Assembly (NCBI GenBank): GCA_049282095.1 | Contig: JBAPTI010000035.1 | Location: 11,927-75,926, forward strand | DNA from: Chthoniobacterales bacterium | GTDB taxonomy: Bacteria; Verrucomicrobiota; Verrucomicrobiia; Chthoniobacterales; UBA6821 | DNA length: 64,000 nucleotides | Direction: 5' to 3' | Shown here: positions 5,100 through 56,058 of the stretch, piece after piece | Position numbering within the stretch: position 1 is the stretch's first letter | Layout of the letters: every line of letters begins with the position of its first letter | Notes under the pieces: model-generated | What the model saw: only the letters and a program-made list of their open reading frames with translations | Database searches by the model: none | Told to the model about the DNA's origin: nothing | Made by a program: the position numbers and the translations under genes

Positions 5100-5101
5100 G
5101 G

Positions 5102-5213: not shown

Positions 5214-5251
5214 GAAAATCAGAAAGCAGAAATCTGAAAACCCAGGATGAA

Positions 5252-13148: not shown

Positions 13149-14168
13149 ATGAACACCACCATCCCCACCTCCCCCGAGATCCTCACCACCACCGTCGGCT
13201 CCTACTCCCCGATCGACTGGCTTGCCGCGCTCCCCAGTGAGCAGGCCGTCCTTGATGCCACCGAAGTGGTCATCAGCACGCAGCGCCGCGCAGGGATCGA
13301 TCTGCCCACCGACGGGGAACTCTACCGCTTCGACGTGAATCATCCCGACACCAACGGGATGATCGAGTATTTCATCTCGCGCATGGGTGGCATCTCCACG
13401 GCCGTGGGACTCACGGATGCGAAGGCCTTCCGTGCCAAGCAGGAGATGAGCTTCCGCCGCAAGCCGGCTGGAGTCGTCCGGGGCCCCATTTCTGAGGGAG
13501 TGCTCGACCTGCAGGAGGACTGCGCCCGTTCCGCCTCCGTCGCCGGAGGTTCCTTCAAGTTCACGCTCACCAGCCCCTACATGCTGGCCCGCACGCTTCT
13601 GGACACCCACTACGGGAATTTTGAGGAACTGACGATGGCCATCGCCGATGTTCTGGCCGCCCAGGTGGGGGATCTTCCCGCGGCGTGCATCCAGGTCGAC
13701 GAGGCCAACATTCCCGGAAGCCCCGAGGGAGCCCCCGTCGCGCAGGCCGCCATCAACCGCATCCTCGACGCCGTGCGCGTGGAGAAGTCCGTCCACTTCT
13801 GCTTCGGCAACTACGGTGGGCAGACCATCCAGAAGGGGGAATGGAGCGCCCTCCTAAAATTCCTCAACGGCCTGCACGCCGATCATCTCGTGCTGGAACT
13901 GGCACACCGTCCCGAGTCGGATCTCGAGGTCCTCGCGGAGATTGATCCGCGCATCAAGCTGGGAATCGGAGTGATCGATATCAAGGTGAACCATGTCGAG
14001 ACGCCCGACGAGGTGGCGGCCCGGATCGAGCGCGCCGTCAAAAAGGCGGGTCCCGGACGGATCAAATGGGTGCATCCCGACTGCGGCTTCTGGATGCTCA
14101 AGCGTTCCGTCGCCGACCGCAAGATCGAGGCCCTTGTCAAGGGACGCGATAGGTATCTCGGACGCTAG
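13149..14168 (+). CDS. cobalamin-independent methionine-synthase-like (MetE C-terminal domain family) protein
   Basis: 339 aa with TTTVGSYSPIDWL, GIDLPTDGELYRFD and candidate zinc-ligand blocks VHFCFGNYGG and WVHPDCGFWML. 42 nt downstream of the Rieske gene. Confidence 0.75.
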   Translation: MNTTIPTSPEILTTTVGSYSPIDWLAALPSEQAVLDATEVVISTQRRAGIDLPTDGELYRFDVNHPDTNGMIEYFISRMGGISTAVGLTDAKAFRAKQEMSFRRKPAGVVRGPISEGVLDLQEDCARSASVAGGSFKFTLTSPYMLARTLLDTHYGNFEELTMAIADVLAAQVGDLPAACIQVDEANIPGSPEGAPVAQAAINRILDAVRVEKSVHFCFGNYGGQTIQKGEWSALLKFLNGLHADHLVLELAHRPESDLEVLAEIDPRIKLGIGVIDIKVNHVETPDEVAARIERAVKKAGPGRIKWVHPDCGFWMLKRSVADRKIEALVKGRDRYLGR

Positions 14169-14443
14169 GGAAGCGCTGATTAAATCCCATGATGGCCGCT
14201 GAAGAGCATTTGCTGATTTTTGAAGGCGCGAGCGCTGGGCGATACCCGCAGCGGTCTCGCCCGAGCGAGCAACGCCACAAAAATCGACAAATGGCTTCAG
14301 CCCTGCGGGTTGCGGTGATAACAGGCCGGGGGCTGTGTTGGCTTGGCACTTACAGCCCGCTGAGGGGATGCTCGTGCCAAGCCGCCTTGCCCGCGGCCAG
14401 TTCTTCCCGCAACGGCCTCTATGCGATTTAATCAGCGCTTCCC
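14168..14443 (+). mobile_element. 276-bp MITE-like element, copy A, flanked by TA/TA
   Basis: Perfect 19-nt terminal inverted repeats GGGAAGCGCTGATTAAATC (14168-14186) / GATTTAATCAGCGCTTCCC (14425-14443). TA at 14166-14167 and 14444-14445. Near-identical inverted copy at 55251-55526. Confidence 0.8.
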
Positions 14444-14471
14444 TAAGGCAGAAGAATCAGAGAAAATTTCC

Positions 14472-14615: not shown

Positions 14616-15044
14616 TCAGCGAGACGCGCTTTGTTCGAAGGGATTGATGACCAGAATGCCGTCGTAGTCCTGACCGTTGCTGAAATCCTCCGAGATCAGC
14701 TCCCTTGCTCCACTCGCGCGCGCAGCGGCCAGGATCATCGCATCCCAGAGGGAAAGCTGCCATCTGGACTTCTGCACCAGCCCCGCATGGAGCAGCGGCA
14801 AGGTATTCTCAACAATCGGCCACATGCTGAAATCCTGCATCACCGCATGGATCTCCTCCTTCGCGATGCCCTTGCGCTCCATGTTCACATGCAGTTCCTG
14901 CAGGACCTGCACACTGATGGCTGTCTCACCCAAGGAATGCCATCCCTCCTCGACGATCCCAAGAGCCACTTCTCGTTTATGAGGTGCGTCCAGATCGTAC
15001 GCATAGAGGAGGATGTTGGTATCGAGAAATCTAACGGCGTGCAT
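14616..15044 (-). CDS. vapC: type II toxin, PIN-domain VapC
   Basis: MHAVRFLDTNILLYAYD N-terminus (PIN acidic D). ATG at 15044 overlaps the antitoxin stop by 14 nt. Confidence 0.8.
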   Translation of the reverse strand: MHAVRFLDTNILLYAYDLDAPHKREVALGIVEEGWHSLGETAISVQVLQELHVNMERKGIAKEEIHAVMQDFSMWPIVENTLPLLHAGLVQKSRWQLSLWDAMILAAARASGARELISEDFSNGQDYDGILVINPFEQSASR

Positions 15045-15255
15045 GGATCTCCTCCCGAGCAAGAGGTGTAGCCCTGAGGTTCATCCCCTTCCTGAGACGG
15101 GCGATGGCATGCTCTCGTCCTTGATGTTCCGTGGAGATGCCAAGCACATGATCGAGGCCCGAAAGAACGAGTTCCTTCAGAGTGGTGCGGCGTTGGGCGG
15201 CAACAATCTTGGCCCGATGCAGAATATCCTCGGGAAGATCAATGGTTGTTTTCAT
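15031..15255 (-). CDS. vapB: type II antitoxin VapB-like
   Basis: 74 aa, MKTTIDLPEDILHRAKIVAAQRRTTLKELV. ATG at 15255 preferred over track start 15303; immediately upstream of and overlapping vapC. Confidence 0.7.
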   Translation of the reverse strand: MKTTIDLPEDILHRAKIVAAQRRTTLKELVLSGLDHVLGISTEHQGREHAIARLRKGMNLRATPLAREEIHARR

Positions 15256-16657: not shown

Positions 16658-16683
16658 TCAGGAACTCAAGAACTCAGGAATCA

Positions 16684-16877
16684 ATCCAAGGGAAACTGGT
16701 GCGGCGAAGCCGCAGCCCCAAGCGGCACCACTTGCGGGGAGGCAAGTGACGTCAACTCAGGGAAGAAACAGAAACTCTCGCGCAGAACCAAGCCTGTGGG
16801 AACAGGCGCGGAAGATCCTGCGAAAGCAGGACCCGTAAGGGCGGCACCGTCCGCCGGAAGGCGGATGCCCTCAAACG
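16684..16877 (+). repeat. hairpin-module repeat, locus 1 (one partial + one complete unit)
   Basis: Complete unit 16785-16877: GAACCAAG, CCTGT-GGGA-ACAGG, CGCGGAAGAT, CCTGC-GAAA-GCAGG, CCC-GTAA-GGG, GGCA-CCG-TCCGCC-GGAA-GGCGGA-TGCC, CTCAAACG. Partial unit 16684-16756. Confidence 0.7.
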
Positions 16878-16974
16878 CGGGGGCACAGAGAAGTTTTTGA
16901 ATCAGAACTGAAGCCGGAGGAAGTCGGCAACTAACGCCCTTGACGCGTAATAACATAAGTGGTAACAAGAATCC

Positions 16975-17202
16975 ATGACCCTCTCCCTGAAAGTCCGAAA
17001 AATCGGAAACTCCCTCGGTGTAGTTCTGCCGAAGGAAGCCCTTTCCCATCTCCATGTGGAGGAGGGGGACACCCTGACCCTGACCGAGGCTCAGGACGGA
17101 GTCCGCCTGACCGCCGCTGATCCCACTTTCACCGAGACGATGGAGGTCTTCGAATCCCTGAGCCGCCGCTACCGCAACGCCCTGCGGGAACTGGCCAAAT
17201 AA
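16975..17202 (+). CDS. AbrB/MazE/SpoVT-family antitoxin
   Basis: 75 aa, KVRKIGNSLGVVLPKEAL swapped-hairpin motif; 10 nt upstream of doc. Confidence 0.75.
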   Translation: MTLSLKVRKIGNSLGVVLPKEALSHLHVEEGDTLTLTEAQDGVRLTAADPTFTETMEVFESLSRRYRNALRELAK

Positions 17203-17212
17203 CCCGCGCTCC

Positions 17213-17605
17213 ATGAAGCTGCGATGGATCAGCCGCGAGGTCTGTCTCGCGGTACACGACATGCTTCTCTCCCAATACGGGGGATGTGCAGGCCTTCGTG
17301 ACTCCGGACTGCTCGATTCGGCAATTGCCCGCCCACTCCAGATGCAGGCCTACGGATCCCCTACCACTGCGGAACTCGCCGCCGCCTATGCGACCGGCAT
17401 CATCCGGAACCATCCCTTCCTCGACGGAAACAAACGGACCGGCTTCATGCTCGGATCCGGCTTTCTGGAACTCAACGGAATGGAATTCTTCGCCACCGAG
17501 GCAGATGCCGTGATCAAGACACTGGCCCTCGCCGCCGGGGAACTGACCGAGCAGGCTTATGCGGAATGGCTGGCGAAGAACAGCAGGGCAAAAGCGGGGG
17601 GCTGA
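17213..17605 (+). CDS. doc: Fic/Doc-family death-on-curing toxin
   Basis: Fic motif HPFLDGNKRTG; 130 aa. Confidence 0.85.
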   Translation: MKLRWISREVCLAVHDMLLSQYGGCAGLRDSGLLDSAIARPLQMQAYGSPTTAELAAAYATGIIRNHPFLDGNKRTGFMLGSGFLELNGMEFFATEADAVIKTLALAAGELTEQAYAEWLAKNSRAKAGG

Positions 17606-17822
17606 CAGAGATCCTAGGTTGTGGCCTTCCTCACATCCCGCTGATCGCCTCCTTCATCCGCGTCGTCCTGATGCTCCTCAATGCTCCTCACCCGCCGCAA
17701 GTCACAGGACAATTCCTGCGAGCATTACTCCCCTCTAACGGGTGTTGTCTTCTGCGGACTGATAAGAAAGGGCCTCTCGCGGAGACGCTAATAATGTAGC
17801 CCAAAAAAGAATCTAACTTCTG

Positions 17823-18140
17823 TCAGAAGAGCTGCTTGGGTTCCATTCGCCCGTAGATTCCATTCATCTGGAGATCCTGCGGGAGAAGAAATCTCGGGAC
17901 CCAGTCCATGGGAGCGTGTTCGTAAATCACAACACAAAACATCTCGCATCCCATCATCCAGCCTTTCCCATATTGTCCTTCGTAGTTTTTACAAATGGTC
18001 GAAAACCCCATTTTTTTAAACTCAATCACTTGCTGAATGAGTGACTTAGGTTCCCTCTTGCCGGGAGGTCGGGGTGGTATTGGCGGCGGAGTCTCCTCCT
18101 TTTTTCCGAACAAATATCGGTAAAAACCGTGGGAACCCAT
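17823..18140 (-). CDS. hypothetical protein (low-GC island)
   Basis: 105-aa ORF with proline-rich stretch ETPPPIPPRPPGK. Begins 4 nt after the upstream island gene stop. No family recognised. Confidence 0.4.
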   Translation of the reverse strand: MGSHGFYRYLFGKKEETPPPIPPRPPGKREPKSLIQQVIEFKKMGFSTICKNYEGQYGKGWMMGCEMFCVVIYEHAPMDWVPRFLLPQDLQMNGIYGRMEPKQLF

Positions 18141-18144
18141 ATTT

Positions 18145-18894
18145 CTATTTAACTATGCTTACGGCCGAAAACGCATCTGGAATTAATCTGACTAAATGCT
18201 CTAAGCGATCATCTACCCGCGGCATATCCAACTCAATATATGGAATATCCTCGTTTCGCAATTGCCGCAGGTATAGAGAAGCAGAAAATACTGAAACTTT
18301 ATCGAATTCACAGCTTCTGAGATTTGCGTGATTTATAGAGTCCTGAAAAGGGCTTAAATCATCAATTTCAAAAAACGGCTTTAGCTTTCTCTTCTCTGAT
18401 AGATCTTCATCGTTTGTTATCGGAGACCAAAACGCCAATAGAGCTTTTCTAGGTGTTCTTTCATTATTACCCCTGCTTTTTTCATTCTGCATTTTCTCAA
18501 GAACCTTCCACACCTTTTTAGAGTTTCTTCTGTTATTCAAATATGTATGTTTATTTGTTCCACACGCTTTCAAAAGTAATTTCTCATCGTTCGGCACAAT
18601 AGGCTGTCCTCCCACGGCACTTGCACTCCAGCTTTTAATTTCAACCTGGTAATGTTCTTTTGTGGTATAAACCCACGCATCCAATTGCGCACCACGCCCT
18701 CCTGCTTTAGGGGGCACTCTGCTAATAGAGAGTTCTTTATTTCCCGGCTGTTTTTTGAGGCAATCCTGCAAAATTCCCAGAATAAGATCTTCACCTATTA
18801 AGCCAGTAATTGAAGTAATTGGAGACCCAATTTGTTCCTTCCATTGATGTGTTGAATCATACAATCCAATCAGCTCATCTATTTTGATTTTCAT
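18145..18894 (-). CDS. hypothetical protein with PD-(D/E)xK nuclease-like signature
   Basis: 249 aa with GEDLILGIL (helix Glu), AQLDAWVY (Asp), 12 residues between that Asp and the Glu, then YQVEIKSW (E-x-K). AT-rich codon usage unlike flanking genes. Confidence 0.5.
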   Translation of the reverse strand: MKIKIDELIGLYDSTHQWKEQIGSPITSITGLIGEDLILGILQDCLKKQPGNKELSISRVPPKAGGRGAQLDAWVYTTKEHYQVEIKSWSASAVGGQPIVPNDEKLLLKACGTNKHTYLNNRRNSKKVWKVLEKMQNEKSRGNNERTPRKALLAFWSPITNDEDLSEKRKLKPFFEIDDLSPFQDSINHANLRSCEFDKVSVFSASLYLRQLRNEDIPYIELDMPRVDDRLEHLVRLIPDAFSAVSIVK

Positions 18895-18931
18895 CTTTGG
18901 CTATTTTGGGATCCTCTTGATTTACTAAACT

Positions 18932-19336
18932 CTACTGAACATAGATGGCCACGCCATCGATCGTTTTAATCTTGTTCATGCTGGTGCCGTAAAGCCCGCT
19001 TCCAAAATTCATGGTTGCGGCCCCACTTGCTTCTGATCCAAGAGATTTCACAATAACTCCATTAGCACCTAGCTTGGCTGCCTTTTCACGTATCTCCCGT
19101 ATTACGGTATTCATTTTTGCCTGTTCGTTCCACGCCCATGACCAGTAAGAATTCGCCGAGATAATCGCAATCTCCTCGTAGGGCTTCTGCGGCGGAGTTG
19201 AGTATATTCGCACCTGATCTGGGGAAATCGGAGGGTGTTGCTGGCCCGTGATAATCGCACTTCCGGTGGCACAGCCTCCCATGGAAAACGAGGCGAAAAG
19301 CAATAATATGGCTTGGCAGAAATACTTTATGTTCAT
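18932..19336 (-). CDS. small lipoprotein (RcsF/YbjQ-like size and pattern, unverified)
   Basis: Signal peptide + lipobox LLFASFSMGGC; 134 aa; C-terminal REIREKAAKLGANGVIVKS. Confidence 0.6.
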   Translation of the reverse strand: MNIKYFCQAILLLFASFSMGGCATGSAIITGQQHPPISPDQVRIYSTPPQKPYEEIAIISANSYWSWAWNEQAKMNTVIREIREKAAKLGANGVIVKSLGSEASGAATMNFGSGLYGTSMNKIKTIDGVAIYVQ

Positions 19337-19340
19337 GATG

Positions 19341-20012
19341 TTATGTTAGCGAATGGGTTTTAGGATGTTTTGTGGGATTTGACCATGGTGTCTTTACGGC
19401 AAGCGGAACCACTGCAGGATCTTCAGCCAGGGCCCTTTCCCTGATTGCTTGAGACAACATCTGATGCTCATCAGGGATTTCCCTTTCCAATAGGGAAAGC
19501 GCGTTGCTGAACTGAGATAGTTCTCGGTGAATCTCTGCTGCACAGAGCAGATCATCAGGATTTGAGAGATCCATCATTTTCAGTATCTGTTCAAGGTTCT
19601 GCCTGTCATGTGCCTGAGGCTCCTTTGTTTCGCCATGGCGGAAAGGATCGTTCTCAGCCCACCATATGGCTTTCCGGAGATACAGCAACTTCTCCGCGTT
19701 GTCCGCCATGCCCTCCGCAATGGCACGGTAGTAATCTTCTTTTAGGATGTCACCCGTGCATCTGGCGTCACTCCATCGCTCTTCGATAGTGTCAGTGCCG
19801 GAAGTGTTGATCGATTGCACGATCTCCCATTCACCAGTCCAGAACAGGAGATCTTCAGAAAAGCTTTTAAATAACCTCTCCCGATCGGGGAGCATGGATT
19901 CCTCACTTTTCCCATCTGTCCAATGTGTGAACTCCAGGGGGTGATCTGGGACTATCTTACTGATCACCAGAGGCTTGGTGCCTCCTTTAGGGATGATGAT
20001 TTGAAGCGTCAT
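19341..20012 (-). CDS. hypothetical protein (low-GC island)
   Basis: 223-aa ORF; its stop lies 4 nt upstream of the lipoprotein start. No family recognised. Confidence 0.5.
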   Translation of the reverse strand: MTLQIIIPKGGTKPLVISKIVPDHPLEFTHWTDGKSEESMLPDRERLFKSFSEDLLFWTGEWEIVQSINTSGTDTIEERWSDARCTGDILKEDYYRAIAEGMADNAEKLLYLRKAIWWAENDPFRHGETKEPQAHDRQNLEQILKMMDLSNPDDLLCAAEIHRELSQFSNALSLLEREIPDEHQMLSQAIRERALAEDPAVVPLAVKTPWSNPTKHPKTHSLT

Positions 20013-20125
20013 AGGGGGCTATGCGCGGTGGCTCGACGAGATGGTTTTGGATCCAGAATGAAGAGTCATGTCTCCTATCCATACAAAACAGCTTCAGAAT
20101 CGGAAACGGAGGAAGGAGAAAATTT

Positions 20126-20923
20126 TTATGGAAAGAAATTTTCCTTGAGGACCGGAAAGGCCATGTAGATCAACCAAAGGAGAAAAACTATACCGATAAA
20201 ATTCTTGATGCGATCATCCCAAGAAGGTCTCGATCGGCTCGGTAAGGGGAGATCGTGCCCTGCGTAATTTTCAGGGTTGCCGGGCAGAAACTTGGCACTC
20301 ATGACCCCCCTAGTCCGGACCTCTGGTCGTGTCTGCTCAACTGCTCGCTGCACCATCTGCCTTACTGCCGCCTTGCTCACACCTTTCTCTCTAGCGATCT
20401 CGGCGTACTTATTCCCTTCGGCGTAGGATTGCAGAACTTCTTGCTGTCCGGGAGTCAGTGAGGACATCCCCTCGCGGAGAATCACCCGAATGTCATTGCG
20501 CTCAGCCTCAAGCAATGGTGAAGCTTCAGGAGAAGGAATGGTTGTCTCCTTGCGGCTCTCTCCCTCGACACTCTCGTGACTGACAGGGGCGTCCAAGATC
20601 AGGGACTCCACCTCGGCCCGTCGTGCAGCTTTAGAGAGTGTATTGAGCAAGCGGTTACGGATTACCGTGGAGGCAAACGGCTCAAAGTTTCCTCTGGCGG
20701 GATCGAACGCATTGGCTGCATTCCACAAGGCGATTCGGGCCTCCTGCTCCCGCTCATCGACGTTATGACCGATGATGGAGATGCTTCGCGCAATCTTGAG
20801 GGCCAGATCAAGGTGCGATTCAAAGAGTTGCTCGGGAGTGGATGCGCTCACTGTAAGATAAGGAAAGCAGGCAATACCTTTTATCTGCGAACAAAAGGCA
20901 CAGGGATTTTGATGCCATGGCAT
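20126..20923 (-). CDS. sigma-70-family (ECF-like) sigma factor with C-terminal transmembrane segment
   Basis: Region 2-like EREQEARIALWNAANAFDPARGNFEPFASTVIRNRL, region 4 HTH LTPGQQEVLQSYAEGNKYAEIAREKGVSKAAVRQMVQRA, then a ~70-aa extension ending in hydrophobic IKNFIGIVFLLWLIYMAFPVL. Confidence 0.7.
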   Translation of the reverse strand: MPWHQNPCAFCSQIKGIACFPYLTVSASTPEQLFESHLDLALKIARSISIIGHNVDEREQEARIALWNAANAFDPARGNFEPFASTVIRNRLLNTLSKAARRAEVESLILDAPVSHESVEGESRKETTIPSPEASPLLEAERNDIRVILREGMSSLTPGQQEVLQSYAEGNKYAEIAREKGVSKAAVRQMVQRAVEQTRPEVRTRGVMSAKFLPGNPENYAGHDLPLPSRSRPSWDDRIKNFIGIVFLLWLIYMAFPVLKENFFP

Positions 20924-21043
20924 GGGAGGGCCAAGCGAGTTCTGAATCTGTTTTCCAAGGCTTGGAAGTTTGGATGCAAGTTATGAAGACCAATAACGCT
21001 ATCCTCCAAATACCGCTCTCTACATTGGGGGGCAGGAGTTTTC

Positions 21044-21113
21044 GATGCCGCGCTAGGCGTGCGAGCGAAGCTGTAGTGAACTACTGCGAGCGAGCAGCAA
21101 CAACGCGCGGCGC
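21044..21113. repeat. GATGCCGCGCTAGGCG...GCAACAACGCGCGGCGC repeat, short copy
   Basis: Both ends match 42829-43015 (GATGCCGCGCTAGGCG[T/C]GCGAG and ACTACTGCGAGCGAGC[A/G]GCAACAACGCGCGGCGC). Termini GCCGCGC / GCGCGGC are inverted repeats. Confidence 0.7.
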
Positions 21114-21138
21114 GAAAAGAACCAGCCCAGTCTTTTCC

Positions 21139-22227
<1,089 letters not shown>

Positions 22228-33863: not shown

Positions 33864-34149
33864 GATGCGTGAAAGGGTGATACGTTAAAAAGCTAATTCA
33901 CAAGACTTGGGCACCCGCAATGCGGTGCGCTTTTAACGCAGTTACAAGGTTAGAATGTGAAAGGTTAAAAAAGGTGCAGAGGGCCGAGTTCAGTCCTTCA
34001 ACTTTTCAACTTTCGCTCCAACGGGGCGAGCCCATTGGGGGCGACCGGCCCAATTATCTGCCGGTCGTCCCCGACCAGGCATCCTCTCCCACAGGCGTGG
34101 AATCGGACTACCTTCGGTATGATTAAGCCGCCTTCCTAGGCGCCTTTTG

Positions 34150-34213
34150 CCCAACAGCCCAACAGCCCAACAGCCCAACAGCCCAACAGCCCAACAGCCC
34201 AACAGCCCAACAG
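34150..34213. repeat. perfect tandem octamer array (CCCAACAG)x8
   Basis: Eight uninterrupted CCCAACAG units at 34150-34213, ending 3 nt from the stop codon (34217-34219) of the TPR gene. Confidence 0.95.
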
Positions 34214-34216
34214 CCT

Positions 34217-35644
34217 TTAGCTTTTCGCGTAGGAGGACTCCACCTTCGCCGCCACGTCGCGATACCCGTAATCCACTTCGTAGATCTGCTTGAAGCAATC
34301 GAGCGCCTTTTCCCGATCATCCATCGTTTCGTAGACGGTTCCGAGGTTGTAGAGGAGATCCTTCTTCACCGAATCCATGGCAGAAAGTTCGGAAATGGCA
34401 TCGGCAAAGGTCTTGGCCGCCAGATCGTTCATGCTTCGAGACACATAGCACTGGCCAAGCTTGCTCATCGCCTTTAGGCGGACGCTCGGGTTGCTGCGCG
34501 CCCGCTGGAGGTGTCCGATCGCCTCCTGCGGTTGGCCCGCATCCATGAGTGCCACAGCCAGGTCGAAATGGGCAAGCAGGTCTGTGGGATTGCGCTCCAC
34601 GCGCTCACGCGCGTCACTCAGGACAAAATCGGCACGCTGTTTGGCGAGTTCCTCCATCTCCTGCCGGTAGAGGGGAGCGTCCGGATCGTCCGGTGACGCG
34701 GCAAGGAACTCCTCGCGGGCCTTGTAGGCATCGTTGATGCGGCGGAGTTGCAGATCGCTGATCTTGCGCGCGATGGTGGGATCGGCACCCGCAGTCAGCC
34801 CCAGGACATATCGATACCACTCGAGGGCGTTGTCGATGTCCCCTTTCTGCTCGCAGAGTTCGGCAACCTTGCGCGACTTGTCGATGCTGCCCGGTTCGGC
34901 CTGCACGGCGGCGGAGAGTTCGGCGATCTGGTTGTCGATCATCTCCTCGCTCTTGACCACGCGACCCTGCTGCTCGAGGGAAACGGCCTCCTCCTTGTTC
35001 TTGATGAGGTCGCGGTAGCTGTCGGCCACTTCCCAGCCACCCTTCTGGACGGTCATTGCCGCGGAGGCGTCCTTGCTCCCCTTGATGGCCGTGAGGTCGT
35101 TGGGGGAGATGACAAGGATGCGGTTGTAGATCTCGACAGCGCGGGCGGGATCCCGGGGACTTCCGTTCTCATCCTTCTCCATGCAGAAGGAGGCAAACCG
35201 GGAGAGCTGCTGCTTGTCCTTGGGTTGGCCTTCGAGAATGGTCTCGAAAGCATAGAAGGCGAGCTCCTTCATCGGGGGTTGCCACTTGAGGGCGATCTCC
35301 TGAAGCATCGTGTTCGCCTGAGCATTGCGCGGGTCGTCGGCCAGCACTTCCTCAATGGCAACCAGAGCCGCGGAGAGATCATTCTTCTTGAGAAGGGCCG
35401 AGACCTTCATCAGGGCAATCGAGGATCCTCCGCCGAATCCCGAGAAAAACCCCTTCTTTGCGGTCTTGGATTTCTCAACGGCGGCCTTCCGCGCCATCTT
35501 CCTTCCATCCAGAAAATCGGGAAGGGTCTGCAACAGCCCCTGGCAGAGCTGAATGACATAGGGATAGTTCTTCAGCTCCATGGCGCTCATTGCCTTGAGC
35601 CATGTCTGCTTCTGCTGCGGGGAGAGGTCTTTCTGTGTTTTCAA
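34217..35644 (-). CDS. tetratricopeptide-repeat protein
   Basis: Multiple TPR-like A/Y/L-patterned helices through the C-terminal 400 aa. The track ORF to 35899 would overlap the upstream gene; TTG at 35644 or ATG at 35590 is a more plausible start. Confidence 0.6.
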   Translation of the reverse strand: MKTQKDLSPQQKQTWLKAMSAMELKNYPYVIQLCQGLLQTLPDFLDGRKMARKAAVEKSKTAKKGFFSGFGGGSSIALMKVSALLKKNDLSAALVAIEEVLADDPRNAQANTMLQEIALKWQPPMKELAFYAFETILEGQPKDKQQLSRFASFCMEKDENGSPRDPARAVEIYNRILVISPNDLTAIKGSKDASAAMTVQKGGWEVADSYRDLIKNKEEAVSLEQQGRVVKSEEMIDNQIAELSAAVQAEPGSIDKSRKVAELCEQKGDIDNALEWYRYVLGLTAGADPTIARKISDLQLRRINDAYKAREEFLAASPDDPDAPLYRQEMEELAKQRADFVLSDARERVERNPTDLLAHFDLAVALMDAGQPQEAIGHLQRARSNPSVRLKAMSKLGQCYVSRSMNDLAAKTFADAISELSAMDSVKKDLLYNLGTVYETMDDREKALDCFKQIYEVDYGYRDVAAKVESSYAKS

Positions 35645-36636: not shown

Positions 36637-36690
36637 GGGAAAAGGATGAATGATGGATTATGTATGATGAAGCTTTAAGAAAAACAACCC

Positions 36691-37050
36691 ATGCAACCAG
36701 CACTCCTCCGCGACGAAGACCTTCGGGAGTCCTTTGCACGCTCTTCGGGGCCGGGAGGCCAGCATGTCAACAAGGTATCCACTGCCGTCACCCTGACCCA
36801 TCTTCCGAGCGGCATCTCGGTCACCGTGAGCGACTCACGCAGCCAGAGCATGAACCGAAAGATCGCCCGTGAGCGACTTGCCGAAAAACTGGAGGAACGC
36901 CGTCTGGCCCGCCGACTCCAGGCACGGGCCGCCACGGCAAAAGCCCGCCGTCAAAAAGCCCGCCGCTCCCCGGGCGAGAAACGGAAACTCGTCGAGGGAA
37001 AACGTCGACGCTCGGAGATCAAGAAGGGGCGCGGCAGGGTGAGCGAGTGA
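36691..37050 (+). CDS. arfB: peptidyl-tRNA hydrolase ArfB (RF-1 domain, GGQ) ribosome-rescue factor
   Basis: GPGGQHVNKVSTAV plus a basic C-terminal tail (KARRQKARRSPGEKRK); 119 aa. Confidence 0.8.
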   Translation: MQPALLRDEDLRESFARSSGPGGQHVNKVSTAVTLTHLPSGISVTVSDSRSQSMNRKIARERLAEKLEERRLARRLQARAATAKARRQKARRSPGEKRKLVEGKRRRSEIKKGRGRVSE

Positions 37051-37136
37051 GCGGGTGGTTAAACCCGGAATTTTGCATTGGGAATTTCTGAGATCATAGG
37101 AGGCCGTGTTAAAAGAGTTAAAACGGTGAAATGTTA

Positions 37137-37483
37137 CAACCAAGGCTCTGAAACGAGACCATGGGGTGGTCGAGTTGTAGCCACCGAAGGTGGACCCAAA
37201 GGGTGAGCCTTGCGGAAGCAAGCGAGTACAAAAGAGCCGCGTAAGATCCCGCGAATGCGGGACCCAAAGGGCGCCACCGCTTGCCGACCGCCGAGTGCCT
37301 GGTGGCACGGCGTAGCCTGTCCCACTAATGCCGGGACAGTCCCGAAAGGGACGAACCAAACACCCGGGAGGGTGTGCGGAAGACTGCGACTCTGTCGCTG
37401 CCCTCAGGGTGCCGCGGCTTCCCGGGAGGGAAGCGGCATCAATGCATCGGGAGATGCTGAGGCAAAGGCAAGTGGCGTCAACG
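37137..37483 (+). ncRNA. candidate structured RNA: ~350-nt array of diverged hairpin modules (locus 2)
   Basis: No credible ORF. Perfect stems with GNRA/GAA loops, all on the + strand: 37181-37193, 37209-37222, 37248-37261, 37340-37351, 37361-37374, 37410-37438, 37444-37457; a 7-bp stem at 37317-37339. Best unit 37353-37444 aligns with units at 16785, 41089 and 45799(-). Confidence 0.45.
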
Positions 37484-37692
37484 TGGATCCGGGAGAGCCC
37501 CGACCTGAGATTAGGGAGAGGGATATCAGGGAAAGTGCCCTCAAAAGATGCCTTCATGAATTCAATTCGGCCTCTGACTTCAGCCCGTTGTAACCTTTTA
37601 ACGGTGTAACCCTTTTAACCTTTTTTACCCTTACCTTCTCGCATCCCCCTTTTTCATTTCATCATTCATCAATCATCATTCATCATTTCCCC

Positions 37693-38589
37693 ATGGATCT
37701 TCTCACCTGCGACCTGCCCGGCATCAAGAAACTCCGCAGCGGCAAAGTCCGCGAGGTCTTCGATCTTGGCGAACACCTGCTACTGGTGGCCACCGACCGC
37801 ATCTCGGCCTTCGACTGCATCCTGCCCAACGCCATCCCGGGCAAGGGGGAGGTGCTCAACGGCCTCTCGACATTCTGGTTCCACCGCCTCGACTTCGTCC
37901 CCAACCACATGATCGAGACCGAGGTCTCGGCCTTCCCCGCCGAACTCAAGCCCTACGCCGACATCCTGCGTGGACGCTCGATGATCGCGAAGAAGGCGAA
38001 GCCGCTCCCTGTCGAGTGTGTCGTCCGCGGCTATGTCGCCGGATCCGGTTGGAAGGAATACCAGGAAAGCGGCACCGTTGGCGGTTACGCCGTGCCGGCA
38101 GGACTCAAGCAATGCGACCGTCTTCCCGAAGATCTCTTCACCCCGAGCACCAAGGCCGACGAGGGACATGACGAGCCGATCACCTGGGCCCAGTGCCGTG
38201 CGCTTCTCGGCGACGAAACAGCGCTCCGCGTCCGCGACATGAGCCTTGAGCTCTACCGCCACGGCCGTGCCTATGCCGCCTCCCGCGGCATCATCATCGC
38301 CGACACCAAGTTCGAGTTCGGCATCCACGACGGCGAGATCATCCTAATCGACGAGTGCATGACTCCGGACTCCTCCAGGTTCTGGCCGGCCGACCAATAT
38401 CAACCGGGCGGCAACCCCCCCAGCTTCGACAAGCAGTTCGTACGCGACTGGCTCGAGAACTGCGGCTGGGACAAGCACCCCCCAGCTCCCGAACTCCCGG
38501 CGGACATCGTCGCCAAGACGGCCGAGAAATACCGCGAGGCACTGATCCGCCTCACGGCTTCGGCTCCCTCAACTGCCTCGGCGACCTGA
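37693..38589 (+). CDS. purC: phosphoribosylaminoimidazole-succinocarboxamide synthase
   Basis: KVREVFDLGEHLLLVATDRISAFD, full-length 298 aa. Confidence 0.95.
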   Translation: MDLLTCDLPGIKKLRSGKVREVFDLGEHLLLVATDRISAFDCILPNAIPGKGEVLNGLSTFWFHRLDFVPNHMIETEVSAFPAELKPYADILRGRSMIAKKAKPLPVECVVRGYVAGSGWKEYQESGTVGGYAVPAGLKQCDRLPEDLFTPSTKADEGHDEPITWAQCRALLGDETALRVRDMSLELYRHGRAYAASRGIIIADTKFEFGIHDGEIILIDECMTPDSSRFWPADQYQPGGNPPSFDKQFVRDWLENCGWDKHPPAPELPADIVAKTAEKYREALIRLTASAPSTASAT

Positions 38590-40291: not shown

Positions 40292-41068
40292 ATGAGCAAC
40301 GGACCCCTCGCAGGTAAAGTCGGCGTCGTTTTCGGCGTCGCCAACAAACGCAGCATCGCATGGGCAATCGCCAAGGCTTGGAAACAGGCCGGCGCCACCC
40401 TCCTCTTCAACTATCAGGGGGAGCGCCTCAAGGAGAACGTCGAGGAACTTGTGGCCGAGTTCGGTGCCGACACCTTCCTTCAGCCCTGCGACGTTGCCAA
40501 TGACGCCGAGATCGCTTCTTTCTTCGGCAAGGTTCGCGAGGTCACTCCGAAGCTCGACCTCATGCTCCACTCTGTCGCCTTTGCCCCGAAGGAAGCCCTG
40601 GAAGGTGATTTCCTCTCTACCAGTCGCGAGGCCTACCGTGTCGCCCACGACATCAGCGCCTACTCGCTCGTCGCCCTCTCCCGCGAAGCCGCGCCGATGA
40701 TGACCGACGGCGGCAGCATCGTCGCCATGAGCTACTATGGCGCCGCCAAGGTCGTCCCCCACTACAATGTAATGGGCGTCGCGAAGGCTTCGCTTGAAGC
40801 CAGTACCCGCTACCTGGCCTACGATCTGGGAGCGAAGAATATCCGCGTGAACTGCATCAGCGCCGGCCCCGTCCAGACGCTTGCCGCCCGAGGCATCTCC
40901 GGATTCGGTGCCATGATCAAGCACTACGAGGAGCACGCCCCGCTCAAGCGCAGCTGCACCACGGACGAGCTCGGCCACACCGGCGTCTTCCTCGCCAGCA
41001 ACGGCGGCAGCGGCATCACCGGTCAAGTGATCTACGTCGACGGCGGCTACGAGATCATGGGGATGTAG
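40292..41068 (+). CDS. fabI: enoyl-[acyl-carrier-protein] reductase (NADH)
   Basis: GVANKRSIAWAIA, SYYGAAKVVPHYNVMGVAKASLE (Tyr/Lys catalytic pair); 258 aa. Confidence 0.9.
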   Translation: MSNGPLAGKVGVVFGVANKRSIAWAIAKAWKQAGATLLFNYQGERLKENVEELVAEFGADTFLQPCDVANDAEIASFFGKVREVTPKLDLMLHSVAFAPKEALEGDFLSTSREAYRVAHDISAYSLVALSREAAPMMTDGGSIVAMSYYGAAKVVPHYNVMGVAKASLEASTRYLAYDLGAKNIRVNCISAGPVQTLAARGISGFGAMIKHYEEHAPLKRSCTTDELGHTGVFLASNGGSGITGQVIYVDGGYEIMGM

Positions 41069-41088
41069 GTTTGAAAAACCTGAAGGCT

Positions 41089-41178
41089 GAACCAAGTCGC
41101 CGGGAAGCGACGCGGAAGACTGCCGAAGGCAGCCCGTCAGCGGTGGCACGGCTTGCCGGGAGGCAAGTGCCATCAACG
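41089..41178 (+). repeat. hairpin-module repeat, locus 3 (single unit, flanked by AAACCTGAA direct repeats)
   Basis: GAACCAAG, TCGCC-GGGA-AGCGA, CGCGGAAGA, CTGCC-GAA-GGCAG, GGCA-CGG-CTTGCC-GGGA-GGCAAG-TGCC, ATCAACG. AAACCTGAA at 41076-41084 and 41182-41190. Confidence 0.75.
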
Positions 41179-42639
41179 TTGAAACCTGAAAAGAAACAGA
41201 AGGGATCCAATAAACGTATTCCCTCCTCACCTCTTCAGGTTTCACGCTTCAAATCTTATCCTTCTCTCGAGCGGGATCTCCGCAAGCTGATCCCCCTCGC
41301 CTCGGGGCTCATCACCGATCCCGCGCGCCTCGCCGAACTGGGGAAGGACAAGTGGTTCGCCGCCTCCCTTCCCGAGATCGCGGTCGCTCCCGGATCCGCC
41401 AAGGAGGTCGCCGCCGTGCTCGGCTATGCCGATCGGCACAACATCCCCGTCACCACCCGGGGCGCCGGCCACGGCTACGTCGGGGGTTGCGTCCCCGTCC
41501 GCGGTGGCATCCTGATGAGCATGCACCGGATGAACCGCATCCGCGAGATCAGCTGTGACGACTTCGTCGCCGTGGTGGAGCCGGCCATCATCACGGGCGT
41601 GCTTCAGACGGAGGTTGTCAAAAAAGGGCTCTTCTACCCGCCCGATCCGCAGAGCTACAAGGACTGCTCCCTCGGGGGGAACATCGCCACCAATGCCGGC
41701 GGCCCTCGTTGCCTGAAATACGGAGTCACCCGCCCCTATGTCCTCGGCCTCCAGGTAGCACTGGCCGACGGCACCCTTGTCCGCGTCGGTGGACGCACCC
41801 ATAAGAACAAGACCGGCTTCGATCTCGTCGGGATGTTCGTCGGTTCCGAAGGAATGCTCGGCGTCATCACCGAAGCGACCCTGCGACTCCTCCCTCTCCC
41901 CCCCGCCCGCGTCACCCTTTCCGCCGGATTCGGATCGATGCGCGATGCCGCCGCCGCCGTGCAGGCGATCTTCAAGGCCGGATACCTCCCCTGTGCCGTG
42001 GAAGTTGCGGACAGTTTCACGCTTCAGTCAGCCAGGGATGCCCACAAGGAGGTGAAGGGAACCTTCATTCCGCCCGGTAAGGCTCATCTGCTTGTCGAGA
42101 TTGATGGCCAGAAGGCTAGCGTCCTGAGCGAAGGAAAGGCCCTCAAGGCCCTCCTCGCCAAGAACAAGGCCCTCGAGGTCGAGCTGGCCACCTCACCCGA
42201 GCGTTGCGACCGGATGTGGGCCCTGCGCCGCGCCTTCTCGGCATCGCTGAAGGCCACCGGCCTCACCAAGCTCAACGAGGATATTGCCGTCCCACGCGGC
42301 CGACTCGTCGACCTTATTGCCTTCGCGGAGAAACTGCAGAAAAAGACTGGCTTCCCGATCGCCTGCTTCGGTCACGCCGGGGATGGCAACATCCATGTGA
42401 ATGTCATGGTCTCCAAGGAACAGCAGGCCAAGCGTCCCAAGGAGATCGAGGGGGTTCTCGATGCGCTCTTCTCGCAGGTCATCAGGTGGGGCGGAGCGAT
42501 TACCGGCGAGCACGGCATCGGCCTCGCCAAGAAACGCTGGTGGAACGCCGCCACGACTCCGGAACTCCGCAACCTGCACATGCGGATCAAATCCGCCGTC
42601 GATCCAAAGGATATCCTGAATCCCGGAAAGTTCGTATGA
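41179..42639 (+). CDS. FAD-binding oxidase (glycolate oxidase GlcD / D-lactate dehydrogenase family)
   Basis: VTTRGAGHGYVGG, CSLGGNIATNAGGPRCLKYG, C-terminal GEHGIGLAK. Start uncertain: the track TTG 41071 would translate the repeat unit; TTG 41179 is the first start after it. Confidence 0.8.
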   Translation: MKPEKKQKGSNKRIPSSPLQVSRFKSYPSLERDLRKLIPLASGLITDPARLAELGKDKWFAASLPEIAVAPGSAKEVAAVLGYADRHNIPVTTRGAGHGYVGGCVPVRGGILMSMHRMNRIREISCDDFVAVVEPAIITGVLQTEVVKKGLFYPPDPQSYKDCSLGGNIATNAGGPRCLKYGVTRPYVLGLQVALADGTLVRVGGRTHKNKTGFDLVGMFVGSEGMLGVITEATLRLLPLPPARVTLSAGFGSMRDAAAAVQAIFKAGYLPCAVEVADSFTLQSARDAHKEVKGTFIPPGKAHLLVEIDGQKASVLSEGKALKALLAKNKALEVELATSPERCDRMWALRRAFSASLKATGLTKLNEDIAVPRGRLVDLIAFAEKLQKKTGFPIACFGHAGDGNIHVNVMVSKEQQAKRPKEIEGVLDALFSQVIRWGGAITGEHGIGLAKKRWWNAATTPELRNLHMRIKSAVDPKDILNPGKFV

Positions 42640-42828: not shown

Positions 42829-43015
42829 GATGCCGCGCTAGGCGCGCGAGGGTGGGCGTAGAAAAGGCGTGTGGGAACGCGGCTTTGCTTCTCCTTCGTC
42901 GATGTCATTCGAGGAATAGGCTGAGAAGTCCTTGGATCAGCAGATCCAAAGATGCCTGATCGGGGAAGATCGGCAGACAAAACTACTGCGAGCGAGCGGC
43001 AACAACGCGCGGCGC
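42829..43015. repeat. GATGCCGCGCTAGGCG...GCAACAACGCGCGGCGC repeat, long copy
   Basis: Same termini as 21044-21113, with additional internal sequence. Confidence 0.7.
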
Positions 43016-43042
43016 CAAAATCCCAAGCCTTTAAGCGGTTGA

Positions 43043-44802: not shown

Positions 44803-45079
44803 AGAAAGAAGGGTGGGCCGAAAATGACGTCCGGAAAGTCAACCGAACGGAAGCCTCCTTGGCAACAATTGAAAAAAGGATGAGGGATGAATTATGAGGG
44901 ATCAAAAGGATATGATAGCGTTAAAAAGTTAAAGGCTTGAAAGGTTTCCCGATCGTTGGCCGCCTCTTACCTTGTCTGCATTGAAGGGTGCAGGAGCCTT
45001 GCGATTCAATACCTACCCGCCCTCGATAAGCGGTAACTTGCGCCTTGCGAAACGGGCGTATCGGATGTCTCTTTGATCC

Positions 45080-45493
45080 ATGGACACTCCTCCTCCCCTG
45101 AACCGCCCGGAAAACTCCCAACCGACCATCGAGATGGTTCCAGCCTCTTCCTCGGAATCGGCCCGTTCATGGTGCATCGGACTCCATCTCTCGGGCCTCT
45201 CGGGACTGATCCTGAGCTTCGCCTTGGCGCATATCGTGGTACCGCTGGTGATCTGGGTCGTGAAGAGAGCCGATAGCCCGGAGATCGATGCCACAGGCAA
45301 GGAGGTGCTTAATTTCCAGATCTCCTACACAATCTACAGCATCATTGCGGGAGCTCTCTGCTTCGTGCTGATCGGCTTCCTGATCCTGCCAATCGTGCTT
45401 ATTGTCTGGCTCGCCTGCATCATCATCGCCGCCGTGAAGACCAGCAACGGCGAGAGCTACCGCTACCCCTACACGATCAGGTTCCTGAAGTAA
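45080..45493 (+). CDS. DUF4870-like small membrane protein
   Basis: Three hydrophobic segments and the KEVLNFQISYTIY block that I associate with DUF4870. Confidence 0.6.
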   Translation: MDTPPPLNRPENSQPTIEMVPASSSESARSWCIGLHLSGLSGLILSFALAHIVVPLVIWVVKRADSPEIDATGKEVLNFQISYTIYSIIAGALCFVLIGFLILPIVLIVWLACIIIAAVKTSNGESYRYPYTIRFLK

Positions 45494-45654
45494 TTGGAAG
45501 CTGGGAGCTTGGAGTTGGAAGCTGGGTATTTGTAACTACTGCCTCCGCCAAATCTCCAAACTCCTATCCTCCAACTCCCGGATTAGCCTTATGGGTCAAG
45601 GTTGTTAGGCTTTCCGTCTTTTAGGCTGTTGGGTTGGGTTTTTTGGATGCCGCA

Positions 45655-45698
45655 TCCAACAGTCCAACAGTCCAACAGTCCAACAGTCCAACAGTCCA
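45655..45698. repeat. tandem octamer array (TCCAACAG)x5 + partial
   Basis: Five perfect TCCAACAG units at 45655-45694 plus TCCA. One base different from the 34150 array unit. Confidence 0.95.
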
Positions 45699-45705
45699 TT
45701 CAGGT

Positions 45706-45799
45706 TTGACGGCACTTGCCTCCCGGCAAGCCGTGCCGCCCTTTTAGGGCTGTTCGCTGCGCTCACAGTCTACCGCGCCCGAACCCTCGGGCTTGGTTC
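45706..45799 (-). repeat. hairpin-module repeat, locus 4 (single unit, minus strand)
   Basis: The reverse complement reads GAACCAAG, CCCGA-GGGT-TCGGG, CGCGGTAGA, CTGT..ACAG, CCC-TAAAA-GGG, GGCA-CGG-CTTGCC-GGGA-GGCAAG-TGCC, GTCAAAC. TTCAGGTTT direct repeats at 45699-45707 and 45797-45805. Confidence 0.75.
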
Positions 45800-45867
45800 A
45801 GGTTTCTTTCCCCGTTTTTATTCACCCTTGCGCATTTATTTGGGCTGCTCCAAATTAAAACCTGACA

Positions 45868-46223
45868 GGGGGCGTACTGGTTTCGACTCGAAGCTCATTG
45901 CGCGTTCTGCATGCCGAGGATGATTCGTTGGCCTCGTAAAAAATCGGATCAAACAAACAAACGCAGATTACGAAGATCTAGCTCTCGCGGCCTAAAGTCC
46001 GCGACGCTGACACACCGACGCCTGCTAGGTGTGAAGGCGACGACAGCAGGCTGATTCCTTGGCGGATTGACCGCGCCGGGGAGTGACTCGATTCCGTGGT
46101 CGATCGGGGGAAAGCAGCGCGCCGCACCGTGGCCGACCCCTTAAATCCCAAGTGCGGTCAAGCATGTGGACGGACGCCTAGTGCGGTTCGGGGACAGGGG
46201 TTCGACTCCCCTCGCCTCCACCA
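45868..46223 (+). ncRNA. ssrA: transfer-messenger RNA (tmRNA)
   Basis: 5' GGGGGCG pairs with 3' CGCCTCC, including the G3:U pair, followed by ACCA. T-arm GGGGTTCGACTCCCC. Internal tag frame GCA GAT TAC GAA GAT CTA GCT CTC GCG GCC TAA (45963-45995) encodes ADYEDLALAA. Confidence 0.85.
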
Positions 46224-55032: not shown

Positions 55033-55250
55033 AGGCCTGCTAACGCAGGCCAAGGCTATTAGCCGTTTAGACTGAAGGCTGTTAGGAAAGCAGGAAACCA
55101 AAGGGGTCGAAAAGTTATTAACTTGGTTCTTTTGCTGGAGCAGAACGTGCCCGATGACCTGCTCCCACTTGCTTTTGGCACCAAAGTCTGCTCCGCAGCC
55201 GACGTGCCAAAAGTGCCGAAGGCATGGGAGTTAGGTCCATCGGCTCGTTA

Positions 55251-55526
55251 TGGAAGCGCTGATTAAATCGCATAGAGGCCGTTGCGGGAAGAATGGGCCG
55301 CGGGCAAGGCGGCTTGGCGCGAGCATCCCCGCAGTGGGCTGTAAGCACCAAGCCAACGCAGCCCCCGGCCTGTTATCTCCGCAACCCGGAGGGCTGAAGC
55401 CATTTGTCGATTTTTGCGGCGTTGCTCGCTCGGGCGAGACCGCTGCGGGTATCGCCCAGCACTCGCGCCTTCAAAAATCAGCAAATGCTCTTCAGCGGCC
55501 TTCATGGGATTTAATCAGCGCTTCCT
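55251..55526 (-). mobile_element. 276-bp MITE-like element, copy B (inverted relative to copy A), flanked by TA/TA
   Basis: Same length as copy A, with about a dozen substitutions by my hand alignment. Termini TGGAAGCGCTGATTAAATC / GATTTAATCAGCGCTTCCT. TA at 55249-55250 and 55527-55528. Confidence 0.8.
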
Positions 55527-55568
55527 TAGGTCTTTTCTGATTTGACGATCTCAGTTCTTATTTCTGAA

Positions 55569-55937: not shown

Positions 55938-56058
55938 CCGTTGATCTCCAAAGGGCACCAAGAGTGAAAGGGGCAGGTTTTTCATGGCCTCCTCCCAACA
56001 GTCTAACAGTCCAACAGCCCTTGGCCTATCCACCTCGTTCTAGCAAGTCGTCGACTTG

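Follow-up and report, generated by a model that had tools for sequence, protein, structure and literature searches.

What does a compact, elaborately folded unit do at four places in one bacterial contig: does it act as a structured RNA for the genes beside it, or does it travel? The question is raised by a stretch of 64,000 nucleotides from a Chthoniobacterales bacterium (GenBank assembly GCA_049282095.1, contig JBAPTI010000035.1, positions 11,927 to 75,926), referred to here as the window, in which an initial annotation had recognised a recurrent multi-hairpin module of about 92 nt. We find that the unit is an insertion element, one copy of a mobile repeat family.

Four copies of a four-hairpin unit

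Reading of the sequence and the scores of a covariance model built from the four window units (model R1) confirmed the units at all four loci first reported, here called u16k, u37k, u41k and u45k (Table 1), each with a score of about 100 bits (E about 1e-28). R1 added two degenerate tandem neighbours, each lying just upstream of a full unit. A loose pattern, CCAAR-N8-24-GCGGNAGA, matched the window four times, exactly at the four units, with 0.75 matches expected from shuffled sequences. The single-stranded blocks and the four helices are as they had been described: the alignment of the four units has 38 invariant columns, and the linkers common to all of them are GAACCAAG, CGCGGWAGA, GGCAC and TGCC-R-TCAA. 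From 5' to 3' the element body consists of H1, with a GGGA loop and closed by CC/GG, followed by H2, H2b (CCC..GGG) and a bulged H3, also with a GGGA loop; the loops of H1 and H3 are invariant, and the 3-nt bulge of H3 is conserved. All four window units are predicted to fold into four hairpins as single-stranded DNA (ssDNA). The outer helix of the 37-kb copy had been called fully inverted, which overstates the change, given that two of its pairs are swapped; the GC to CG swap at one outer-helix position of this copy recurs in 41-51 copies of the family.

Family-wide distribution and compensatory changes

A scan of a species-representative genome collection with a 22-base gapped pattern returned more than 101 stretches, and among the matches listed nearly all came from freshwater Verrucomicrobiota metagenome-assembled genomes (MAGs) labelled Spartobacteria or Chthoniobacterales. 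Copies were counted at E<1e-8 with a second covariance model that includes all four helices (R2), the comparison DNA being the window together with chunks of about 8 kb around units (loci numbered with the prefix L), about 720 kb in total. This gave 144 copies in the window and 13 Chthoniobacterales/'Spartobacteria' MAGs, with at least 43, at least 32 and at least 24 copies in three of the MAGs. R2 detected no copies in DNA of other phyla that matched the pattern (59 kb), and no copies were found in the viral contigs searched. The window organism is close to MAG JBEIJN01, with 97.6% identity over a 164-bp match that flanks the 37-kb locus.

Four Rfam scans were run and none assigned the unit to a family, in agreement with its first description as unplaceable: over the whole window only tmRNA reached the gathering score, positions 41040-41240 gave nothing at E<=10, and 17 kb of unit-rich loci and positions 36950-37720 gave sub-threshold noise only, with no match to HEARO. 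A limited search of the literature on Verrucomicrobia/Chthoniobacter repeats found no paper, which is not proof of absence. The family appears to be undescribed; its kind is already known.

The stem changes had been interpreted as compensatory, which holds across the family, and the copies are more than recent duplicates of one another. Consensus folding of the four window sequences gave double-sided changes in 12 of 21 pairs. In an alignment of 137 distinct copies, fitted to the covariance model, standard pairs occupy 95.2% of the stem cells, compared with 36-48% when the partners are slid; 26 of the 28 pairs change on both sides (656 cells), and a covariation score of 0.449 compares with about 0.04 in the control, with no shuffle attaining any of the observed measures. 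The covariation of H1 and H3 was recovered when 99 copies were aligned with MAFFT without regard to structure: one H1 pair, for example, occurs as CG in 44, GC in 24, UA in 21 and AU in 4 copies, and one H3 pair as GC in 52 and CG in 41. As for H2 and H2b, the variable middle taken by itself folds as two hairpins in 73 of 84 distinct segments, and the H2 stems comprise more than 12 sequences that differ by whole base pairs. These data confirm that the four-hairpin module is real, a conserved structure with true compensatory changes throughout the family.

The GNRA loops, present on one strand, had been taken as an argument for a role at the RNA or single-strand level. The predicted folding is equally good on both strands, as RNA and as DNA, so that this argument holds for the loop sequence only; folding energy gives no strand preference.

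Filled and empty sites define a mobile element

The possibility, raised initially, that the units are mobile and target-specific was borne out by filled and empty sites and by a strand-specific flanking motif: close relatives differ in the presence or absence of the unit, with sharp edges. The boundaries given by these sites are 5'-CCAAG...(G/A)TCAA-3', and the element is about 85-105 nt long with no gene inside.

At the 37-kb locus L003, a close relative, lacks a composite block of 342 nt, and five paralogous sites are likewise empty; without the block the sequence is ATGTTACAA^CGTGG, and with it ATGTTACAA^CCAAGG...GGCGTCAA^CGTGG (a caret marks the junction). The locus exists in three nested states, with neither repeat in L102, with a 230-nt repeat called family B in L003, and in the window with family B carrying the 342-nt block inside it. 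L037 holds part of the composite without u37k, the left flank of u37k being joined directly to the 3' half of its H3. A variant unit occupies a site in two L083 copies (MAG CANKJN01) of an inverted-end element whose window copies are empty at 14212-14226 and 55468-55482; here the empty site reads GCGCCTTCAA^AAATCAGC and the filled site ...TTCAA^CCAAGCC...CCGTTCAA^AAATCAGC. In two further comparisons, L056 with L015 and L053 with L087/L077, the flank base counts are equal in filled and empty sites, indicating that no duplication took place. L004, a contig with an identical FabI protein, has no u41k and differs in the surrounding spacer too, so that this pair is not a clean empty site. Exact-protein look-ups for further empty sites returned one uninformative contig and one protein without a record.

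Terminal inverted repeats were not found: the 3' end, reverse-complemented (TTGAYGGCA..), has no repeat in common with the 5' end CCAAG(C)... Target-site duplication was rejected as the source of the apparent direct repeats, because these are pre-existing heptamer arrays and two clean pairs show no duplication; three other pairs have bases in common at both junctions (see below). The 9-nt AAACCTGAA that had been noticed on both sides of copies is real, and all five of its occurrences in the window abut units, but it did not arise by duplication on insertion, being a member of (NNNTGAA)n arrays.

Two of the host repeats have features of their own. Family B is about 230 nt long, ends in CTTTTAAC 8-mer repeats and lies in the window at 37056-37139 and 37482-37623, split by the 342-nt composite; it occurs at no fewer than seven other loci (at least 7), is absent from the orthologous L102 site and has no Rfam match. 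The inverted-end element is a 280-bp sequence resembling a miniature inverted-repeat transposable element (MITE), with 36-nt terminal inverted repeats (TAGGGAAGCGCTGATTAAATC...), which is present twice in the window (14166-14445 and 55249-55528) and contains an 80-codon open reading frame (ORF; 14189-14431) without a Pfam match.

Target motif and landing sites

Among 111 distinct copies, the base at position -4 relative to CCAAG is T in 60%, that at -3 is G in 104 (94%), that at -2 is A in all 111, and that at -1 is A in 109 (98%). The orientation of insertion is fixed, directly 3' of (T)GAA or (T/A)CAA on the same strand, the motif being TGAA in about 90% of copies and TCAA or ACAA in the others; empty sites carry TTCAA or TACAA, and the paralogous empty copy of the L082 pair has TAAAA. 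At the other end, all four window units have TCAA without variation, and its conservation among 99 copies exceeds 90%; 3' of it the same 111 copies show a weaker NNNTGAA signal. Therefore, the element recognises T(G/C)AA on its own strand and carries TCAA at its own 3' end.

An array of 7- or 8-mers lies within 45 nt of 40 of the 111 units, compared with 44 of 3000 random windows, and the element seems to land preferentially in these short arrays. The direct-repeat signal in the flanks exceeds chance (4.42 versus 3.38 +/- 0.11), with the sequence leading up to '..AA^CCAAG' agreeing in a fixed register with the sequence that follows 'TCA^A..', as expected from insertion between two members of a heptamer array. 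The unit u41k, for instance, sits in the context ACCTGAA-GGCTGAA-(u41k)-CGTTGAA-ACCTGAA. Tandem units are either exactly one heptamer apart (...GTCAA ACCTGAA CCAAG...) or abut the TCAA of an earlier copy (...GGCGTCAA^CCAAG...), and the preference for landing in heptamer arrays and at the TCAA of an earlier copy accounts for the head-to-tail clusters.

The intergenic DNA of the window is rich in 7-8-nt tandem arrays, among them GCCCAACA repeated nine times, GTCCAACA, and arrays of the GGAGCTA/GGAGTTG and NNNTGAA types (Table 1), and short arrays also occur without a nearby unit. Arrays of this length resemble the heptameric STRR repeats of cyanobacteria.

Gene context and the question of a host RNA

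The RNA-level function that had been proposed for the unit is not supported by its genomic setting. Relative to flanking genes, called with a crude gene caller based on third-position GC, 14 units lie in sense and 17 in antisense between co-directional genes, 20 between convergent and 14 between divergent genes, so that their orientation is random, and the neighbouring genes are unrelated across loci. G.U pairs outnumber A.C mismatches by 61 to 41 in the model-fitted alignment (p=0.06), an asymmetry too weak to serve as evidence for an RNA strand. The orthologues of u41k in five species-level MAGs are 96% identical in this region and have 8 substitutions in 90 nt; three of these fall in stem pairs and none is compensated. 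The rate per site is 0.09 in u41k, 0.10 at the 3' end of fabI and 0.14 in the downstream spacer. In this test of one locus the orthologous unit thus decays uncompensated at the local rate, which implies that the structure is selected elsewhere than at the resident locus. A second comparison, of u16k with L084, was discarded as a case of orthologous compensation, since the two loci are not orthologous. Random orientation, the weak G.U excess, the equal folding of both strands and this uncompensated decay speak against a function as RNA; what would survive of the single-strand function first suggested is a role as ssDNA during transposition.

The conserved multi-helix architecture and the conserved junction sequences are what one would look for in a cis-regulatory RNA tied to particular genes, such as a riboswitch, a leader or an element of the 3' untranslated region. 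This explanation is effectively refuted: the random orientation and the unrelated neighbours led us to reject it, and the head-to-tail clusters, the nesting within other repeats, the variable presence between near-identical strains and the lack of an Rfam match count against it as well.

It is also unlikely that the host keeps the copies for a local function of the folded transcript or DNA, be it protection of mRNA 3' ends, insulation of operons or protein binding, as has been proposed for REP/BIME, with mobility explaining no more than their arrival. Such a function would agree with the retention of all four helices in 95% of cells across 13 MAGs, with the intergenic position of the units and their somewhat greater number between convergent than between divergent genes (20 and 14), with the ability of either strand to fold, which makes either orientation workable, and with the persistence of the fabI-glcD copy in five species-level MAGs. 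However, that retained copy is uncompensated and evolves at the local rate, the fabI-glcD locus lacks the unit in L004, the 37-kb locus occurs in three states, and in the sequence no U-tract terminator follows H3.

The insertion at the fabI-glcD locus bears on the annotation of the downstream gene. In the window a glcD-like ORF (FAD_binding_4/FAD-oxidase_C; 41071-42639) is open through u41k, and among L001-L004 the gene calls have 522-526 or 494 aa with the unit and 476 aa in the unit-less L004, where the start GTG (first base of the call) overlaps the fabI stop; 2 nt upstream of this GTG there is an ATG in a different frame. Judged from the sequence, the true start in the window is probably TTG 41179 or GTG 41167, in which case the insertion would have replaced a start coupled to fabI.

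A candidate mechanism of movement

How the element moves is a question to which we can offer an answer with about an even chance of being correct, namely that the family is a non-autonomous IS200/IS605-type (PATE-like) ssDNA element moved in trans. It would travel in the form of ssDNA, following the 'peel and paste' route known from IS200/IS605, with TGAA as the transposon-adjacent motif, TCAA as the transposon-encoded end motif, H1 and H3 as subterminal imperfect palindromes, and a Y1 (HUH) transposase encoded elsewhere supplying the chemistry. Covariation would then reflect selection for transposition competence among many active lineages, the stems covarying because a copy must keep its fold in order to be moved, and inserted copies would afterwards decay neutrally.

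Several properties are shared with PATEs and the IS200/IS605 family. Both lack terminal inverted repeats and, where this can be scored, target duplications; insertion is orientation-specific, 3' of a 4-nt motif; hairpins, one of them bulged (here H3), lie beside both ends; and there are many gene-less copies whose presence is polymorphic and apparently precise. The 3' end of the element is a conserved tetranucleotide, TCAA, identical to the right end of IS608. Together these properties make up the signature published for single-strand transposition of IS200/IS605. PATE-like elements without genes that are moved in trans have been described (PMC10055086), and the use of TCAA at the right end is documented for IS608 (PMC3201880). 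The top strand of the unit lies on the G-rich strand in 76 copies and on the other in 48 (p=0.02, uncorrected), or in 48 and 33 where the absolute skew exceeds 0.03, an excess in the direction expected for insertion into the lagging template.

A number of observations weigh against this mechanism. In the roughly 720 kb of window and loci, tblastn with approximate IS608 and IS200 TnpA sequences as queries found no Y1 transposase (best E=1.3); this search covered chunks of about 8 kb around units and is therefore weak negative evidence. No recurrent transposase-like ORF was seen near units: ORF clustering across loci returned orthologous housekeeping genes only, pairs of 5'-half and 3'-half matches 0.4-3 kb apart contained only PIN, other ORFs (not Pfam-scanned) or chance matches, and Pfam searches with ten window ORFs gave MazE, Fic, PIN and an ECF sigma factor, and no transposase. 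The geometry differs from that of IS608, the target motif lying 5 nt from H1 and TCAA 1 nt after H3, whereas the distances in IS608 are 19 and 10 nt. Inspection of the bases 5' of the hairpin feet showed no evident complementarity to TGAA/TCAA, either in the CCAA before H1 or in the GGGY before H3, if non-canonical pairing rules are set aside; that neither guide tetranucleotides were recognisable nor TnpA found counts among the differences from PATE/IS200-IS605. H2 and H2b covary as strongly as H1 and H3, although internal hairpins have no known role at IS200/IS605 ends, and together with the two invariant GGGA loops they are kept as strictly as the ends, for which recognition of the ends would not by itself account. 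Gene direction also shapes local skew, and the weak replication-strand bias carries no correction for linked copies. Finally, in three of the five filled/empty pairs the same 3-5 nt (CAA, TTCAA) stand at both junctions; these bases could represent the target motif together with the end of the element, or else a short duplication, and a recombinase core is possible too.

Two further differences concern the nature of the element. In contrast to PATE/IS200-IS605, the target TGAA and the end TCAA are nearly the same here, so that the element targets its own end and the heptamer arrays. Moreover, whereas PATEs are found as near-identical copies, here the whole body is structured, with four helices and two invariant GGGA loops, and there are many compensated subfamilies. 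Since no TnpA was found in the DNA around units, the hairpin distances differ, no guides are recognisable, and the internal helices and shared junction bases do not fit, we infer that the family works like PATE and do not file it as a proven member.

The shared junction bases would also be left by an element that is moved by an IS607-like serine recombinase or a tyrosine recombinase, with an AA/CAA crossover core and a circle junction ...TCAA^CCAAG... that recombines with a target ...TGAA.... In favour of such a core are the AA at both junctions (positions -2 and -1 are A in 100% and 98%, and the element ends in CAA), the three pairs with CAA or TTCAA at both junctions, and the absence of inverted repeats and of a long duplication. 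The two pairs that share only AA fit either model equally, though, and no recombinase recurs near the units; strand-specific ends on a body made up wholly of hairpins are not known from IS607-type elements. We consider movement by a recombinase distinctly unlikely. An IS91-type rolling-circle element comes to mind as well, given that the IS91 targets GAAC and CAAG are both contained in GAACCAAG; it was rejected because the empty sites assign CCAAG to the element, whose flank may be TTCAA or TACAA.

Relation to other repeats and scaffolds

The unit resembles REP/BIME sequences in being extragenic, abundant, hairpin-forming and clustered, with a conserved single-stranded tetranucleotide beside a hairpin and HUH chemistry suspected, and for this reason one has to weigh a REP-like system in which the enzyme is a domesticated RAYT (TnpA_REP) and not an insertion-sequence transposase. 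As RAYTs belong to the same HUH/Y1 superfamily, most of the evidence for the PATE-like mechanism applies to them too. REPs, however, have one hairpin of about 20-40 nt, carry a GTAG-type head and form inverted doublets, while the 90-nt unit is 3-4 times as long, has four hairpins and no GTAG-type 5' tetranucleotide, and clusters head to tail. No RAYT was seen, though distant ones could escape the TnpA tblastn. On balance a RAYT-served system is improbable.

Classical MITEs such as BOX, RUP, Correia/NEMIS and ERIC are likewise small, non-coding, dispersed, highly folded and modular, and 5' modules are exchanged in the present family too; they differ in having terminal inverted repeats and short target duplications (e.g. 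TA), typical of DDE transposases, neither of which occurs here. Integron attC sites offer another parallel, as their sequence varies while the single-strand structure is conserved and is recognised strand-specifically. An attC site, though, is one long bulged hairpin with complementary RYYYAAC/GTTRRRY ends beside gene cassettes, whereas the CCAAG and TCAA ends of the unit are not complementary, its four hairpins are separate, and neither cassette arrays nor an IntI context appeared around it.

The strong covariation of H2 and H2b, which end recognition does not explain, and the two invariant GNRA (GGGA) loops would suit the idea that the 3' two-thirds of the unit (H2-H2b-H3-TCAA) form a compact omega-RNA-like guide scaffold for a TnpB/IscB-type nuclease acting in trans, with the downstream heptamer as guide; such a scaffold would end exactly at the element boundary. 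At about 65 nt, however, it would be far shorter than known omega-RNA scaffolds, and the G.U versus A.C asymmetry is weak. Neither tnpB nor iscB was seen, no sensitive search having been made, and there is no Rfam match, HEARO included. PATE elements 'often encode omega RNAs' that are acted on in trans (PMC10055086), which counts in favour of a scaffold, but we hold this explanation to be very improbable.

A low probability likewise attaches to the proposal that the four-helix module is a functional ssDNA or RNA in its own spread, as a compact guide- or bridge-type scaffold that pairs an enzyme with TGAA arrays, or that the element seeds or expands the arrays. The scaffold version would draw on the two invariant GNRA loops and on H2 and H2b being under the same structural selection as the ends. 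If true, either version would place the family in a new class of mobile elements, self-targeting and selected for structure, whose geometry is not that of IS200/IS605.

Related families and neighbouring features

The same MAGs contain a distant sister family built on the same plan, in which GGGA loops cap H1 and a bulged H3, and H2 and CCC..GGG lie between them. It has other linkers (..ACCGG.., ..GGGATAGCC..), its end is GCAA or TCAA, and it is sometimes inserted within a unit on the opposite strand. In other subfamilies the 5' module GAACCAAG-H1-CGCGG is replaced by another hairpin (..GCCTGGTCTGGGCAGACCGGCAGATAAAAGA..) or by a heptamer array that runs directly into H2, a modular composition as in BOX elements.

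Directly downstream of u16k lies a MazE-Fic toxin-antitoxin pair (16975-17202 and 17213-17605), followed by ORFs of low third-position GC (17823-20923), among them one for an ECF-type sigma factor and three without a Pfam match; positions 16975-21000 are possibly an acquired island. A PIN-domain gene is found at 14616-15062. A 49-nt repeat of 88% identity (AACTACTGCGAGCGAGCAGCAACAACGCGCGGCGC...) occurs at 21079-21127 and 42981-43029, and a string similar to it lies beside a variant unit in L064.

Table 1. Positions of the units and associated features (window coordinates unless a locus number is given)
Feature	Position	Strand	Basis or remark
Degenerate unit, tandem upstream of u16k; H1/H2 eroded, H3 and TCAA retained	16676..16761	+	R1 30.7 bits, E 3e-7
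u16k core (CCAAG...TCAA, 87 nt)	16788..16874	+	Covariance-model match 16783-16880
Composite insertion, 342 nt; begins CCAAGG (unit 5' end), ends GGCAAGTGGCGTCAA (unit 3' end)	37140..37481	+	Filled/empty comparison
Degenerate unit within the 342-nt composite	37213..37305	+	R1 21.1 bits
u37k core (CCAAA...TCAA, 87 nt), within the 342-nt composite	37356..37442	+	R1 and sequence; covariance-model match 37351-37448
Heptamers upstream of u41k (..AAACCTGAA GGCTGAA); last TGAA abuts the unit	41073..41091	+	Sequence
u41k core (85 nt), between the fabI stop codon and the conserved glcD-like start	41092..41176	+	R1 and sequence; covariance-model match 41087-41182
Heptamers downstream of u41k (CGTTGAA ACCTGAA), same array continued	41177..41190	+	Sequence
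MamF_MmsF-family gene	45080-45493	+	Neighbour of u45k
ACCTGAA heptamer, then 8-mer array (GGACTGTT)n, directly 3' of u45k	45654..45705	-	Sequence
u45k core (91 nt), antisense to both neighbour genes	45706..45796	-	R1 and sequence; covariance-model match 45700-45801
AAACCTGAA directly 5' of u45k (TGAA target motif)	45797..45805	-	Sequence
tmRNA gene	45868-46223	+	Rfam RF00023, 134 bits; 66 nt from u45k, opposite strand
7-8-nt tandem arrays	34141-34220, 45654-45701, 55985-56024, 5090-5265, 21847-21876, 36651-36671, 44870-44905, 45489-45532		
Sister-family copies	L024:3986-4074, L006:2682-2772, L036:107-197, L057:5771-5863	+ (all)	Same four-hairpin plan
5'-module-swapped subfamilies	L062:344-445, L018:7445-7518, L053:763-843, L037:2879-2977		H2-H2b-H3-TCAA kept

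Implications

In covariation screens such units mimic structured-RNA candidates, and the lesson for screening is that strong covariation on its own does not point to a host RNA; here a host RNA and a mobile element were told apart by orientation statistics, filled and empty sites and the decay of orthologous copies. The units also mislead gene callers, as with the glcD-like ORF extended through u41k, and together with the 7-8-mer arrays they break MAG assemblies.

The family consists of small gene-less mobile repeats in uncultured freshwater Verrucomicrobia (Chthoniobacterales), a new repeat family rather than a regulatory RNA. If the PATE-like reading holds, freshwater Chthoniobacterales genomes would each carry dozens of copies with clean ends, TGAA^CCAAG...TCAA^, whose many structurally compensated lineages would amount to a natural experiment on what single-strand transposition requires of its substrate, and the family would provide an example of targeting directed at short tandem arrays and at the element's own end motif.

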